64,000 nucleotides of DNA, from positions 3,808,001 to 3,872,000 of the forward strand of contig OZ242326.1 of NCBI GenBank assembly GCA_965208325.1, read 5' to 3'. The notes under the pieces were generated by a model. That model did not search any database. It saw nothing but the letters and a program-made list of their open reading frames with translations, and was not told the DNA's origin. Below, piece by piece: positions 46,354-51,014 of the stretch. The stretch is from Candidatus Poribacteria bacterium (GTDB lineage: Bacteria > Poribacteria > WGA-4E > PCPOR2b). Position 1 is the first letter of the stretch; the number at the start of each line of letters is the position of its first letter. Position numbers and translations under genes: made by a program.

Positions 46354-46606
46354 GCACTTCAGGTTGAAATTCGCCGATCCATAAGTCATCGAAGGGCATT
46401 GTCAGCATCTACACCACTGTAGGCGGGGCATCTTGCCCCGCAAAGTAGTAGGCACACGCCGTGTGCCGTAATCTTCTGTAAAACCACACTAACCATACAC
46501 AGCAATCGCGTAATCAAGCGATCGAATAGGGCGCAATAGTCTTCGGCGCCTGTATCCTGTAGGAGCAATCTCCGAATCGCGGTACTCATTTAAAACCGAG
46601 TTTTTT
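46354..46606. repeat. Repeat family A (composite of three GTAG REPs ending in a hairpin), copy 1, interrupted
   Basis: Colinear with 49863-50142 and 51309-51561; continues at about 48605-48633 after the insertion. Confidence 0.9.
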
Positions 46607-46611
46607 ATAGT

Positions 46612-46640
46612 TTGTATCAAATGACCCCATGAGTTAAACT
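46612..46640 (+). promoter_or_regulatory. Putative promoter overlapping the left IR of the element
   Basis: TTGTAT-17 bp-TAAACT about 50 bp upstream of orfA. Confidence 0.45.
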
Positions 46641-46689
46641 GATAACAGATGTTATTTCCATCAATTACCATGAATCCATGGAGGTCATT

Positions 46690-47490
46690 ATGAAACCACA
46701 AAGTCATTCAAACTACGGTATCAATCGTCTGGAATCAAAGACGGCGAGAGCGGCAATTATTCAGAAGATTGCGTCAGACTTCAATCTGATGCCTATCCTT
46801 GCCGAAGCCTACTATAATCAGATTTCTTCCTACTTTGCCCAACACGCCGATATTAAACTCACATCAGGCCAAATCTGCTATGAAGCCGTAGCCGCCGACG
46901 AACCCGCAGGTAAACACATTGCCTTAGCCAAAAAGGTCTCCTGCCAACTCACCCTCAATGATGTGCACACCGATCTTGAGGTGTTAGCCAACTATGGACT
47001 TGCAGGACTCAGACGACATCGAATCTTACGGTTAACCAAACAAGCCTATGACCAAGACGCTTTGCTCAGCTATGAAGATTTAGCGGTGCTATTAACCACC
47101 AGCCCGGCGACCGTCAAACGAGACATTCGACAGTTGAAACAGCAAGGGTTTTTTGTAATGACTCGCGGCGCCAAACACGACATGGGCCCCGGCATCTCTC
47201 ATAAAACCCAAATCCTAGAACTGTACTTTAAAGGCTATCAATTCACCGACATTGAGCGAAAGACGAACCACACCGAACGCGCCGTGTTGAGATACTTGCG
47301 TAATTTCACTCAGGTAGCAACCCTCCATCATCAAGACTTTCCAAAGGAACAGATACGGCTCATCACCCATCTCTCTGACCGATTGATTCGTGAGTATCTC
47401 TCCCTGTATGATAAATACGAACATACAGAGCGAATGACGACTTTACTTCATCCTGAACCCGTTGATGAAAAAAAGGGGGAAAACTCATGA
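46690..47490 (+). CDS. DUF1670-like protein (orfA)
   Basis: RLTKQAYDQDALLSYEDLAVLL, SPATVKRDI (HTH), TRG...DMGPGISHK; GGAGG RBS at 46680. Confidence 0.8.
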   Translation: MKPQSHSNYGINRLESKTARAAIIQKIASDFNLMPILAEAYYNQISSYFAQHADIKLTSGQICYEAVAADEPAGKHIALAKKVSCQLTLNDVHTDLEVLANYGLAGLRRHRILRLTKQAYDQDALLSYEDLAVLLTTSPATVKRDIRQLKQQGFFVMTRGAKHDMGPGISHKTQILELYFKGYQFTDIERKTNHTERAVLRYLRNFTQVATLHHQDFPKEQIRLITHLSDRLIREYLSLYDKYEHTERMTTLLHPEPVDEKKGENS

Positions 47491-48380
47491 GTAAATCATT
47501 GACTCGAACCGAAATCAACGAGAAGAAAATCAGACGTATCAATGATAAATCGTTGCGGCAGTTGCTGATTCATCGCTTTATCAATTCCTATGGGTATGAC
47601 AAAGGCGAAGTGACTGCCAAAGCCATTGTCGATGACATCGTCAAAACTATTGAAGACTATTTCCTGATTCGCTTGCCACTTGATAAACTCGCCGCTGGAG
47701 AACAACTTCCTGATGAACGAATGCTTAGCTATGGTCAACTGGTTTGGATGGCTGTGCCGATTGACGAATATCCACAGAGAGCCAAGTCAATCGTTAAAAC
47801 CCGCATGAAGCCTGTGGTTTTAAGCTTTGTGGCCCCCGAGGACATTGAACACTATTACAGCGGCTTCAGCTCTCGTGAACTCAGAATTCATCGATTGGTG
47901 CGATGGTGTTATCAAGCCTATGACCAAGGGGCATTGTTGACTCAACTAGACCTGGCTGTGTTGCTCAACGTCCGCGACCCAGTAGTGAGTGAGTATGTCA
48001 ACGAGTGGCAAAGCACCAGTGGAAAAATCTTGCCCACTCGCGGCAACATTCACGATTTATCGGCGGCAATTACACACAAGAAGGAGATTATTACCCTTTA
48101 TCTACAAGGGCACCTGACTCCGACCATTGCTGCCAAAACCAAGCACTCCAAAGAAGCTGTTGACCGATACATCCATGATTATGAGTCCGTTAAGATTGTT
48201 CGCACCGCTACCGATGACATTGACAAAATCTCTCAGATTACCAAACTTTCCAAGCGCGTCATCTCTCAATATCTCGACCTAATTCCTCAACATTCGCTGA
48301 ATGACATCAACGCAAACTTGGAAGACGGCAAAGATAACACCGTGCCGTCCAGTTCCAAACCTACAGGAGACTTGCAATGA
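47487..48380 (+). CDS. DUF1670-like protein (orfB), paralogue of orfA
   Basis: QAYDQGALLTQLDLAVLL, PTRGNIHDLSAAITHK, HSKEAVDRY; ATGA overlap with orfA. Confidence 0.8.
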   Translation: MSKSLTRTEINEKKIRRINDKSLRQLLIHRFINSYGYDKGEVTAKAIVDDIVKTIEDYFLIRLPLDKLAAGEQLPDERMLSYGQLVWMAVPIDEYPQRAKSIVKTRMKPVVLSFVAPEDIEHYYSGFSSRELRIHRLVRWCYQAYDQGALLTQLDLAVLLNVRDPVVSEYVNEWQSTSGKILPTRGNIHDLSAAITHKKEIITLYLQGHLTPTIAAKTKHSKEAVDRYIHDYESVKIVRTATDDIDKISQITKLSKRVISQYLDLIPQHSLNDINANLEDGKDNTVPSSSKPTGDLQ

Positions 48381-48698
48381 CAGCATACGCCTATTATTGC
48401 TTAGACATGGGAAAACAACGTCTCTTTCTTTGGCATCGGCTTGGCACGCCATAGCCATTTTGGTATACTTTGTCACGCTTCTAGCCAAACCAAATGAATT
48501 TCTTGACGGATAAGCTAATTAAGCCAACATAACTCGCTCATTTGATGATGGCTCGAAGTCAGTAACCACGCGCATTCCAACTATCATCAGGTCATTTGAT
48601 ACTATTTCTTCAAAACTCGGTTTCTCCTAATCCTATGATTTCAGCCTGAACAATGTCTCAGGCAAAATCGTAATATACCCGAAAGGAGTTGAAATACT

Positions 48699-49496
48699 AT
48701 GCCAATCAAAACTTTCCGATTCATGATAGTTCTCTTGGTAATCGTCGCTGTGTTTGGACGAATGTGTATCGCCGGTACCTGGATTGACGATTTCAGTGAC
48801 CGAAACCTTCCAGATTGGGGGCCTCCTAGGGGGCCGCAACATTTTGGGGGCGGTCGAATAAATGACGGGGTTAACGCAGGTGTTGTTGATGGACACTTCC
48901 ATTATGAAGGGAAAAAACAACGAACAAGTCATAATTTGAAGAATTGGGGATTAGGGAAAATCCAAGATTTTTCGCTCGAGTTGAAGTTTATGTTTAGAGA
49001 CATCCGAGACAGCCTGGAGAGTTCTTGGACAATTCGATATGCCTCATTTAACGAAGAAAAGGGGGATTTCGACGGGTTTATGAGCTTTTTGTGGTATCCC
49101 GATTCCGAAGGGAAACCCAACGTTTCATTTATTACGATTGATCGCTACGAGTTGAGAGTGCCGGAGGATTTTCCAGAATTGGGGCAAGGCTGGATGCCAG
49201 ATCTCGCTGCAATAGACAGCTTTGCATTCGAAGAAAAGGTCTGGTACACGTTGAGGATTACACGCGAAGAAAACCAATATACTTTTTCGATGGACGATGT
49301 AATTTTATTCGCAGAAGATGATACAGTGCCGATGGGTACGATTGAGCTGTCATTTCATGGATGGTTCACCGTCTGGTTGGATGATTTTACGGTGACCGGC
49401 CCCGATGTTCCGAATGGAGGACCTGGCTTTATGGGAGTCAATCCATCGGCAGAGGGAGTAACGACGATGTGGGGAAAGCTCAAAGCACAGAACTGA
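48699..49496 (+). CDS. Secreted beta-rich (ConA-like) hypothetical protein
   Basis: Signal peptide; AGTWIDDFSD, WYTLRI, LDDFTVTGPDVP; C-terminal GVNPSAEGVTTMWGKLK. Confidence 0.75.
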   Translation: MPIKTFRFMIVLLVIVAVFGRMCIAGTWIDDFSDRNLPDWGPPRGPQHFGGGRINDGVNAGVVDGHFHYEGKKQRTSHNLKNWGLGKIQDFSLELKFMFRDIRDSLESSWTIRYASFNEEKGDFDGFMSFLWYPDSEGKPNVSFITIDRYELRVPEDFPELGQGWMPDLAAIDSFAFEEKVWYTLRITREENQYTFSMDDVILFAEDDTVPMGTIELSFHGWFTVWLDDFTVTGPDVPNGGPGFMGVNPSAEGVTTMWGKLKAQN

Positions 49497-49584: not shown

Positions 49585-49614
49585 AAACCGAGTTTTTTCT
49601 TCAAAACTCGGTTT
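49585..49614. repeat. Intact (empty) copy of the hairpin targeted by the DUF1670 element
   Basis: AAACCGAGTTTT-TTCTTC-AAAACTCGGTTT, followed by CTCCTAATC as at 48624. Confidence 0.9.
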
Positions 49615-49862: not shown

Positions 49863-50142
49863 GCACTTCAGGTTGAAATTCCCCAATCCATAAGCCATCG
49901 AAGGGCATTGTCAGCCTCTCCACCATTGTAGGCGGGGCATCTTGCCCCGCAAAGTAGTAGGCACACTCCGTGTGCCGTAATCTTCTGCGAAATCACACTA
50001 CCCATCCACCGTAACTGCGCAATCAAGCCATCGAATAGGGGCGCAATAGTCTTCGGCGCCTGTATCTTGTAGGAGCGATCTCCGTATCGCGGCACTTATT
50101 TGAAACTGACTATTTTCTTCAAAACTCGGTTTCTCCTAATCC
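49863..50142. repeat. Repeat family A, copy 2 (uninterrupted)
   Basis: Colinear with 46354-46606 joined to 48605-48633. Confidence 0.9.
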
Positions 50143-50244: not shown

Positions 50245-51014
50245 ATGCCAATCAGAACATTCCGATTCATGATTGTCCTCTTTGTAACCGTCGCTGTGCT
50301 TGAACGAATGTGTATCGCTGGTACGTGGATAGACGATTTCAGTGACCGAAACCTTCGAGATTGGGAAGGCGGTCTAATAAATGACGAGGTTAGCGCAGGT
50401 GTTGTTGGTGGACACTTCTATTATAGAGGAAAAAATGAACGAGCAGGTTATTATATGAAAAATTTGGCATTAGGGAAAATCCAAGATTTTTCGCTCCAGT
50501 TGAAGTTTATGGTTAGAAACCTCCGAGACCTACGGCAGGGTTTTTTGACTATTGAATATTCTTCATTTAACGAAAAAACGAGGGGTCACGACGGGATTAT
50601 GCAATTTCGTGGTATCCCCATGGGGAACCCAAAATTAACATTATGGATGTTACAATTGATCGCTTCGAGCTGAGAGTGCCGGAAGATCAGCCAGAATTGG
50701 GGCAAGGCTGGATGGCAGATCTCGCTGCAAAAGACAGCTTTGCATTCGAAGAAAAGGTCTGGTACACGTTGAGGATTGCACGCGAAGGAAACCAATACAC
50801 TTTTTCGATGGGCGATGTTATATTATTCGCAGAAGATGATTCAGTGCCGATGGGTAAGATTGAGCTGTTATTTTTTGGAAGGTGTACCGTCTGGTTGGAT
50901 GATTTTATCGTGACCGGCCCCGATGTTCCGAATGGAGGCCCCGGCTTTTTGGGAGTCAATCCATTGGCAGAGGGAGTAACGACGATGTGGGGAAAGCTCA
51001 AAGCACAGAACTGA
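50245..51014 (+). pseudogene. Frameshifted paralogue of 48699-49496 (probably an intact gene with an assembly indel)
   Basis: Two ORF pieces are colinear with the paralogue; one extra T near 50605 restores F-S-W-Y-P. Confidence 0.75.

Follow-up and report, generated by a model that had tools for sequence, protein, structure and literature searches.

A two-gene DUF1670 element inserted at one base of a repeated hairpin in Candidatus Poribacteria

To our knowledge, the well-described prokaryotic insertion sequences all use DDE, DEDD, HUH, serine or tyrosine recombinases. Tn7 inserts at attTn7, where TnsD reads the 3' end of a conserved gene whose product is left unchanged, and it relies on the catalytic proteins TnsA and TnsB and an ATPase and makes a 5-bp duplication. 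Elements of the IS3 family have the ends TG...CA. According to one report, the IS3-family elements ISPsy8, IS1397 and ISKpn1 insert at one fixed point of REP hairpins, with a 3-base direct repeat in the case of ISPsy8, and these REP-targeting elements have two consecutive ORFs and a target chosen by their own protein (PMC1525189). Two other papers associate REP hairpins with RAYTs (PMC3333891, PMC2817692).

We analysed a 64,000-nucleotide stretch of a Poribacteria genome (the window; every feature below lies on its forward, or +, strand) and found that a REP hairpin in it is split by an insertion element of 1,998 bp at 46607..48604. The left hairpin arm, AAACCGAGTTTT, was read from the sequence at 46593-46604; a further TT behind it extends its T run to six (46601-46606). 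At 48612-48623 the right arm, AAAACTCGGTTT, was likewise read, with TTTCTTC (48605-48611) directly before it. The left half of the split hairpin (46593..46606), consisting of the arm AAACCGAG and the six-T run, is target DNA outside the element, and the right half (48608..48623) consists of the CTTC remainder of the loop and the arm AAAACTCGGTTT. An intact target hairpin, which represents an empty site, lies at 49585..49614 and folds at -14 kcal/mol (z -4.4). A first-pass annotation had described both this intact copy and the arms held apart by an insert of about 2.0 kb, and direct reading bore it out on both counts. It had also stated that the duplicated neighbouring unit (49863-50142) lacks the insert. 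The insert is indeed absent there, with the qualification that the left hairpin arm of this unit, which runs to 50142, is degenerate (AAACTGACTATTTT).

The element begins with the heptamer ATAGTTT (46607..46613), which lies outside the inverted repeat and was invariant in all left ends examined. Seven nucleotides separate the left 13-bp repeat, GTATCAAATGACC (46614..46626), from the left junction, and 2 nt separate the right repeat, GGTCATTTGATAC (48590..48602), from the right junction. The two form a perfect 13-bp inverted repeat whose asymmetric placement, as first proposed, was confirmed on direct reading, and the left repeat is unchanged among elements that diverge by up to 22% overall. 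Behind the right repeat stand TA, which belongs to the element, and TTT (48603..48607), which may be a 3-bp duplication or core or else the element's own last three bases; in the latter case the element measures 2,001 bp (to 48607) and the right repeat lies 5 nt from the junction. In a leader stem-loop (46614..46696) the start codon of the first gene and its ribosome-binding site are paired with the left repeat; this stem-loop has a folding energy of -22.1 kcal/mol (z -2.9). Its pairs are kept in 10 elements and are nearly invariant, with compensatory pairs at 1/22, and covariation backing the hairpin was not found among these 10 elements and 22 pairs.

The insert encodes two DUF1670 proteins and nothing else. 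ORF1 (46678..47490) encodes 270 aa and matches Pfam PF07900 with an E value of 7.6e-64 (215.5 bits), and its paralogue ORF2 (47487..48380) encodes 297 aa and matches with an E value of 1.1e-59 (201.9 bits), both above the gathering score of 25 bits. The two genes overlap in ATGA and their products are 34% identical over 186 aa (E 2e-27). This agrees with the first reading of the insert as two paralogous, ATGA-coupled DUF1670 genes. The true start of ORF1 is probably the second ATG at 46690, giving 266 aa, since that methionine is nearly invariant, most homologues have 266 aa and GGAGG stands at 46680-46684. Values of dN/dS of 0.05-0.11 for ORF1 and 0.09-0.12 for ORF2 point to strong purifying selection on both. 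We know of no function assigned to the DUF1670 family, and no paper naming it was found in the literature searched. Current annotation calls DUF1670 proteins 'hypothetical' or 'biotin operon repressor'.

We found that the closed 4.7-Mb Poribacteria genome carries four copies of the element, 100% identical over 1,998 bases. At all four the outer flanks differ, whereas the split hairpin is the same, with an identical left half-hairpin beside each copy, and the element sits at the same base of the hairpin loop in the same orientation. Such a pattern goes far beyond chance. Copies with identical ends in different hairpin copies and empty target sites had both been predicted, and both were found: the former at 4/4 sites in this genome and at 14/14 hairpin-class sites overall, the latter as the about 57 intact hairpins left in the genome. 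Copies in 6 other Poribacteria genomes align with the element over its full length at 75-95%, and the aligned stretch ends exactly at the boundaries of the element. The insert is a mobile unit with exact ends that lands at one base and in one orientation in a repeated target, and its sole cargo is its two DUF1670 genes.

DUF1670 occurs in 9/41 relative genomes, always as ORF1 plus ORF2 pairs and in up to 5 copies, and one further Poribacteria assembly holds at least 10 copies. When the ends of the elements were compared, ATAGTTTGTATCAAATGACC and GGTCATTTGATACTA were invariant at 28/28 complete sites. Relatives of the proteins make up 1,237 cluster representatives at E <= 0.001 and include, besides bacteria, a match in an archaeal control genome; the plasmid collection gave no match. 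About 54 of the 120 ORF1 homologues listed have a longest contig of just 1.5-2.7 kb, like collapsed repeats. DUF1670 elements fragment assemblies into contigs of about 2 kb.

The first-pass annotation proposed that the DUF1670 pair is itself the recombinase of a target-specific mobile element. The element is target-specific and mobile; the catalytic part of the claim fared less well, with predicted models that are DNA-binding only and a Y1 gene in the host. It had also seen no DEDD, DDE, HUH or serine-recombinase motif, and Pfam finds none in either ORF: no rve, no DEDD (PF01548/PF02371) and no Y1 (PF01797) domain. HTH_23 and HTH_29 gave weak matches below their cut-offs. No resolvase or integrase catalytic domain was found by Pfam or NCBIfam, no nuclease family (LAGLIDADG, HNH, GIY-YIG or PD-(D/E)xK) by Pfam, NCBIfam or PHROGs, and the PHROGs matches were to transcription-regulator families only. 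Fused DUF1670 proteins with two or three modules carry no additional Pfam domain. Polar residues conserved in both paralogues are, in ORF1 numbering, D99, R118, D134, R163, H175, H198, Y206 and Y240; the ORF2 counterparts of D99, R163, H175, H198, Y206 and Y240 are D119, R185, H197, H220, Y228 and Y262.

An AlphaFold2 (AF2) model of ORF1 (pLDDT 90.8) and a model of ORF2 (77.3) both open with three helices and a beta-hairpin at the N terminus, followed by a winged helix and two more HTH units. With two or three short strands only, they fit an RNase H-like sheet poorly. Foldseek returned nothing at E <= 0.001 for either model, with the N-terminal ~100 residues barely covered. The best VIA Z scores, 6.9 and 6.4, were all to DNA-binding domains and inside the tool's stated noise range. 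Of the resolvases, only the HTH domains appeared among the structural matches (Z 5.6-5.7), in searches that barely covered the N-terminal 100 residues. A profile search of PDB sequences gave regulators only (E >= 0.04), and the ESM Atlas gave weak HTH clusters only (0.80) and no match for residues 1-104. As modelled, both proteins are built of DNA-binding helix-turn-helix modules, and neither shows a fold known from transposases or recombinases. A resemblance to the CAP domain of Topo VI-A and Spo11 (Z 6.4 and 5.6) was discounted because ordinary winged helices score equally well and no conserved Tyr lies in the winged helix of the proteins. Co-folding of ORF1 with ORF2 gave an ipSAE of 0.43 versus 0.00 for the best of 3 controls, with contacts agreeing to at least 73% across three runs and a partner pLDDT of at least 70. 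The ipSAE mark was reached by 116/157 solved complexes and 2/215 mismatched pairs, and scores of 0.60 or below came from just 18 of those 157 complexes and from both mismatches. The predicted complex thus lends weak support to a partnership between the two proteins.

The 28 complete sites fall into 14 in hairpins, 12 at the ends of T9SS domains and 2 elsewhere. All four target genes tested match TIGR04183 above its cut-off, and in the genome of the window relics of the right end remain at 3 gene ends of the T9SS type. The left flanks of the T9SS class have CTAYTT alone in common, and these targets are unstructured, with no hairpin. The usual target of the family is the last codon of type IX secretion (T9SS) sorting domains, on which most relatives in other Poribacteria sit, and the present lineage has been retargeted to the loop of REP hairpins. 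At T9SS sites the element end provides a new stop codon. We suggest that insertion occurs 3' of YTT and that the terminal CTATTT is brought by the element itself; CTATTT reads as Lys-stop on the strand of the gene, so the T9SS gene product would be retained. This resembles Tn7, in which the DNA-binding protein TnsD reads the 3' end of a coding gene and the gene product is preserved, but TnsA, TnsB, an ATPase and the 5-bp duplication are all absent from the DUF1670 element.

In its hairpin targets the element resembles the IS3 elements ISPsy8, IS1397 and ISKpn1, which, going by the same report, likewise combine a fixed REP-hairpin point, two ORFs and target choice by their own protein. In contrast to the OrfA and rve DDE transposase of the IS3 family, the DUF1670 element has no rve, and its ends are other than TG...CA. 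IS3 elements make a 3-4 bp duplication; here the right flank is TTT at 28/28 sites and the left flank is TTT at 24 of these and CTT at 4. IS630 and Tc1-mariner elements differ in their DDE/D domain, which is lacking here, and in a TA duplication where this element is flanked by TTT.

Hairpin- and T9SS-targeting elements differ chiefly in ORF2. Of 36 class-diagnostic columns, 17 lie at element positions 1200-1299, a stretch of 100 bp within ORF2. The main part of the patch that separates the classes covers ORF2 residues 117-135 (47835..47891). Residues 163-165 (47973..47981), which cap the recognition helix of the winged helix at its N terminus, read RDP in the hairpin class and CDA in the T9SS class. 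The patch is conserved inside each target class. In a tree of the patch the hairpin class is set off by 0.16 substitutions per site with a support of 100/100, whereas the other 1,735 columns do not separate it from its T9SS-class sister, and a simple hairpin-class clade was not rejected by an AU test on this backbone (p 0.155). By this comparison, a burst of change in ORF2 residues 117-135, 163-165 and 193 accompanied the retargeting. Synonymous change in the patch is raised as well as non-synonymous change (pS 0.62, pN 0.16), so a recombination tract is as likely an origin as selection. Only one evolutionary switch ties the patch to the target, and with that proviso the element's own proteins appear to choose the target.

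Another way to choose a target is a guide RNA. The element recalls the IS1111 subgroup of IS110, which uses a bridge RNA (for example IS621), in its subterminal repeats, its REP or hairpin targets entered in one orientation, a short core common to junction and target, and a non-coding end that bears a promoter. Here this is a promoter-like site, TTGGCA-17-TATACT with an extended -10 TG (48441..48469; 10/12 consensus matches), which faces outward 135 nt from the right end and whose -10 box and TG are conserved in 7/7 aligned elements. An RNA from the right end that guides target choice is nevertheless very improbable and in our view largely refuted. None of the class-diagnostic columns falls at positions 1-150 or 1600-1998, and these non-coding ends are constant across targets, with no counterpart found in them to the target- and donor-matching loops of a bridge RNA. 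Rfam gave no match at E <= 0.1, and the right end folds on par with shuffles (z 0.01) and shows almost no covariation. A DEDD transposase is absent from the element, and an IS110-type gene (PF01548) is absent from the closed genome, whereas control genomes matched.

The outward promoter would drive ORF1 and ORF2 only across a junction of right end to left end, in a circle or a tandem copy. No such junction (right end + 0-8 nt + left end) turned up in a metagenome scan. The assembled contigs of 4 runs held elsewhere only intact hairpins (joint sides 21-31 nt) and no circle junction, and they included one 2,016-nt stand-alone element contig. A scan with the 15-mer right end gave at least 118 loci; 4 of those listed passed a loose upstream-sequence filter, and since none of the 4 was an element end by eye we took the loci to be chance matches. 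The cumulative GC skew of the genome, examined for a replication-strand bias, had no clear shape.

In the closed genome the element ends flank DUF1670 elements and their relics only. A non-autonomous derivative of a longer element was rejected as a candidate: this genome contains no longer element that combines these ends with a conventional transposase, and the ends of its six rve (DDE) loci are not those of the element. Such a longer element is what the first-pass annotation had named as fatal to its own reading.

Since the element encodes just a pair of related DNA-binding proteins and no enzyme recognisable as one that cuts DNA, it may move by a yet-undescribed mechanism. We give about even weight to the view that it is an active member of an undescribed site-specific insertion family in which the DUF1670 pair is the whole mobility apparatus. 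More tentatively, the DUF1670 heteromer may form a new class of transposase or recombinase built of HTH modules only, with its specificity in an exchangeable patch of one subunit, which was naturally retargeted from the T9SS last codon to the REP hairpin loop. The two paralogues would act jointly, the more conserved ORF1 type reading the invariant 13-bp repeats and ORF2 reading the target, and the complex itself would break and join DNA through the conserved polar residues. This last is the weakest step of the explanation; the polar residues could all be DNA-backbone contacts instead.

Catalysis could also be supplied in trans. The DUF1670 pair would then bind the ends and pick the target while an enzyme of the host or of another element cuts and joins. 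A Y1 HUH transposase or RAYT is the obvious candidate, and a topoisomerase or Xer-type recombinase is possible. We regard this as a possible but doubtful account. The modelled DNA-binding-only architecture of both ORFs would suit it, and the site follows a logic like that of Y1 transposons, with insertion 3' of YTT, a right end in the same TTT and a hairpin-loop target. IS200/IS605 elements similarly insert on the 3' side of a short fixed sequence, of which their right end carries a second copy, and possibly make no duplication; CTT at 4/28 left flanks against TTT at every right flank favours no duplication here. RAYTs are associated with REP hairpins, and one RAYT (Y1) gene of this genome has target hairpins on both sides. 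Y1 genes lie outside the element in this genome, and a Y1 (HUH) gene is present in 9/9 DUF1670-positive genomes searched, which makes catalysis in trans possible; but Y1_Tnp occurs in 36/41 genomes anyway, so the co-occurrence is uninformative. The element itself has no Y1 gene, and its T9SS-class targets form no hairpins. IS200/IS605 ends both carry the same single-strand hairpin, whereas here only the left end has a well-supported one and on one strand each 13-bp repeat is the complement of the other, so the ends would present different hairpins. With the family also in an archaeon, a helper would need a near-universal distribution.

A further account is homology-assisted copying (homing or gene conversion), in which the proteins cause a lesion or stall at an empty repeat and host recombination copies the element from a filled repeat, donor flank included. 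The targets are always repeated families, and donor-like sequence lies beside the right end in 2/2 orthologous comparisons, a co-transfer of the right flank that recalls homing genes. In these the T9SS gene end, over 51 nt (L020) and about 17 nt (L021), is non-orthologous to the empty sites of sister genomes, and a shared 24-mer occurs in that genome solely at the two filled sites. One orthologous empty site holds a single AAG, and its flank is replaced at the filled site; for L018, L019, L024 and L025 no orthologous empty site was found in five genomes, the flank being repetitive or the gene absent. We nonetheless consider copying improbable. The T9SS-class left flanks share just the CTAYTT, the sites L032 and L042 have flanks without any homology, and inverted repeats under such strict conservation, like the exactness of the ends, would be left without a role. 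Replacement of the flank could just as well stem from a later gene conversion that involved two filled copies. Homing endonuclease genes differ, moreover, in that the DUF1670 element has no recognisable nuclease and its left flanks are unrelated between sites.

A widespread family achieves base-precise insertion into chosen sequences while encoding none of the known enzyme types, and the element provides DUF1670, so far a Pfam domain with no assigned function, with one. Either DUF1670 hides a new DNA-joining enzyme or a small DNA-binding pair commandeers an enzyme of the host, and there would be new biology both ways. The natural retargeting maps to roughly a dozen residues and points to a compact insertion system that may be re-aimed.

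Direct reading of the sequence confirmed the arrangement described in the first-pass annotation, an insertion element lodged in a split hairpin. A 1,998-bp insert (46607-48604) separates a left hairpin arm, AAACCGAGTTTT (46593-46604), from a right arm, AAAACTCGGTTT (48612-48623), and an intact copy of the same hairpin lies at 49585-49614. Near its two ends the insert carries 13-bp inverted repeats without a mismatch (46614-46626 and 48590-48602); a gap of 7 nt separates the left one from its junction, and a gap of 2 nt the right one. Its two genes, ORF1 (46678-47490) and ORF2 (47487-48380), overlap in ATGA. Both products match Pfam DUF1670 (PF07900) over its full length (E 7.6e-64 and 1.1e-59) and are paralogues of each other (34% identity, E 2e-27). 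In NCBIfam no family scored above cut-off for either protein, and the sole transposase model touched was IS1 (E 0.012), over a helix-turn-helix (HTH) stretch.

Two features of the surroundings were also observed. The hairpin of the neighbouring repeat unit (50100-50142) has a degenerate left arm, AAACTGACTATTTT, which through three substitutions reads ACTATTT, the heptamer that the right terminus of the element forms with TTT, perhaps by chance and perhaps as a footprint. Each hairpin unit is followed by one of a tandem set of paralogous proteins that look secreted (48699-49496, 50245-50673 and 50643-51014); the second paralogue is probably frameshifted since it is split into two overlapping ORFs (50245-50673 and 50643-51014).

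The host genome (C1), a single 4.7-Mb contig, contains four copies of the element without a single difference over the 1,998 positions. Their outer flanks differ, but every copy splits the same hairpin at an identical base and always in one orientation. With strict arms required we counted 73 hairpin copies, of which 50 also had the exact loop; 57 hairpins were intact when the T run was allowed to vary. Many stand in tandem units spaced by 159, 193 or 352 bp (for example C1 3456490-3457127, 1895013-1895399 and 2032412-2033469), and one element copy (2033878-2035875) occupies the next unit of a 352-bp array. C1 has two Y1 (HUH) genes, and one of these (C1:3321740-3322303; 188 aa, motif NHYH, in the unit C1:3321640-3322360) has the target hairpin on both sides. 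Because the hairpins are repeated and flank this gene on both sides, they are REPs with their own REP-associated Y1 transposase. Passages in PMC1525189 record REP targeting for the IS3, IS110, IS4, IS256 and IS5 families, and a 3-base repeat left by ISPsy8.

DUF1670 pairs, always ORF1 with ORF2, were present in 9 of 41 related genomes at up to five copies, and another Poribacteria assembly holds at least ten. Whole-element alignments to these relatives (75-95% identity) end at the same two ends. Among 28 complete distinct insertion sites, 14 split the hairpin loop, 12 lay at the extreme end of a gene and 2 fell elsewhere. The 12 targeted gene ends read ...ATRKM(V/L)ILK, and the T9SS type A sorting domain TIGR04183 was above cut-off in all four that were tested. 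On the strand of the gene the right end of the element is TAG, so the gene retains its last Lys and gains an immediate stop codon. In C1 itself decayed right ends remain at three T9SS-type gene ends, and a relic of about 390 bp (C1:2139016-2139404), with degenerate left and right ends and no genes, lies at a gene end of this type and represents either a copy that lost its interior or a miniature derivative. Therefore, in the C1 lineage, the T9SS target is the older and the hairpin target is derived.

In two sister genomes (L064 and L068) 15-nt right-end stubs (TAGTATCAAATGACC) form the stop codon region of a T9SS gene, where the orthologues in other genomes have TAA; the stubs are old insertions of which the stop-supplying end is the sole survivor. 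In another Poribacteria genome (L049:1470-3470) about 2 kb encoding a 336-aa transposase-like ORF and a 311-aa ORF, IS630-like by eye, is inserted into the leader of one element copy, and other copies there have ORF2 interrupted by TGA, or further inserts.

All 28 sites have TTT at the start of the right flank; the last three bases of the left flank are TTT at 24 and CTT at four, all of the T9SS class. For L020, a CTT site, two sister genomes have the orthologous locus empty, with ...AAG TAG present once, where the filled site has ...AAA [element] AAG TAG. This comparison favours TTT being part of the element, which would insert 3' of YTT without duplication; in that case CTATTT at its end would imitate the Lys-stop of the target. 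The comparison falls short of proof, since the sequence of the gene adjoining the element is itself non-orthologous to the empty sites, over 51 nt at L020 and about 17 nt at a second locus, L021. The two gene ends have a 24-mer in common that occurs nowhere else in that genome, and either the element brings donor flank along with it or later conversion took place between filled copies. In the L017/L050 copy the element directly abuts the remnant of an earlier right end, in the order right end-TTT-left end, and this shows that a site fit for further insertion is recreated at the right junction.

Near the right end a promoter-like site (TTGGCA-17-TATACT with TG, 48441-48469) is directed outward, towards the first secreted-looking paralogue (48699-49496). 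Such sites were not above chance in the region (4 found, 3.7 expected); the -10 box and TG of this one are kept in 7/7 aligned elements. No promoter-like site was found upstream of ORF1, where a leader fold pairs the left repeat with the ribosome-binding site and start codon (z -2.9, no supporting covariation). Together the outward site, the lack of one before ORF1 and the leader fold suggest that both genes would be silent in the resting copy and expressed across a right-end-to-left-end junction.

We compared six hairpin-class with six T9SS-class elements, a contrast that represents one evolutionary switch from T9SS to hairpin (n=1). The classes are separated by 36 alignment columns, of which 17 fall in a 100-bp stretch of ORF2; the non-coding ends contain none. 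Hairpin-class ORF2 has P117, H122, Y123, Y124, S125, S128, E131, H135, R163, P165 and A193, whereas T9SS-class ORF2 has, in the same order, S, S, F, R, N, T, Q, N, C, A and G; each class conserves its own version. In the ORF2 model these residues lie in helix 117-124, the start of long helix 129-146, the cap at the N-terminus of recognition helix 164-178 in the winged helix, and the linker that leads to the following HTH. In a tree of this 281-nt patch a branch of 0.16 substitutions per site (support 100/100) separates nine hairpin-type rows from L041, their nearest T9SS-class relative, whereas the other 1,735 columns do not resolve them apart. A plain hairpin-class clade was not rejected on that backbone (p-AU 0.155), the tested group having been named after the tree was seen. 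Non-synonymous change is raised in the patch (pN 0.16 versus 0.02-0.05 elsewhere); because synonymous change is raised too (pS 0.62 versus 0.20-0.43), a recombination tract is as possible as selection. Judged from these alignments, target class follows the ORF2 patch and not any RNA-coding end. The target is very probably chosen by the element's own proteins.

Both ORFs are under strong purifying selection (dN/dS 0.05-0.12). In the ORF1 model (pLDDT 90.8) residues 1-95 form three helices with a beta-hairpin; a long helix then runs into a winged helix (105-169), followed by an HTH (173-221) and a helical unit resembling TrpR/Mor (200-259). The ORF2 model shares this layout (pLDDT 77.3). Foldseek gave no match to the DUF1670 models at E ≤ 0.001. 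In a wide structural search the best hits (Z 6.9 and 6.4, a range common for the tool) were all DNA-binding domains, and a PDB sequence profile search returned regulators only; the N-terminal 100 residues were hardly covered by these searches. In the longer proteins of the family two or three DUF1670 modules are fused, and Pfam recognises no further domain in them. The predicted ORF1-ORF2 complex (ipSAE 0.43 versus 0.00 for the best of three controls; contact agreement at least 73% across three runs; partner pLDDT at least 70) was rated by the tool as weak support for a partnership, at a mark reached by 116/157 solved complexes and 2/215 mismatched pairs, with 18/157 solved complexes and both mismatches reaching it at ipSAE ≤0.60. 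Residues conserved at ≥90% in 72-84 diverse sequences and both paralogues include D99, R118, D134, R163 (invariant), H175, H198, Y206 and Y240 (ORF1 numbering), and these polar residues could form an active site or simply hold DNA.

The first-pass annotation took the DUF1670 pair to be the recombinase itself. The element's target-specific mobility is upheld, and it is very probably its own proteins that choose the target; for catalysis the searches returned DNA-binding matches only, and we put self-catalysis at an even chance or slightly below. Pfam found no DEDD (IS110-type), rve (DDE) or Y1 domain in the element. Nor do its ends flank a longer element with a conventional transposase in C1, since they occur on no other sequence there, C1 has no IS110-type gene, and its six rve loci do not share them. 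Catalysis by a borrowed enzyme acting in trans is less likely than self-catalysis, though a fair possibility. Y1 genes accompany the pair in 9/9 DUF1670-positive genomes, but they are also present in 36/41 genomes overall.

In the Creative Commons PMC and bioRxiv literature we found no paper naming DUF1670 or PF07900 and no description of an insertion element supplying a stop codon to T9SS genes; the single match on the latter theme, judged by title and abstract, deals with T9SS in nematode killing. The best matches there on site-specific two-ORF elements of new families, and on HTH transposases and their target sites, described no element like this one. We conclude that the element is real, recently active and target-specific, and that it is a member of an undescribed family.
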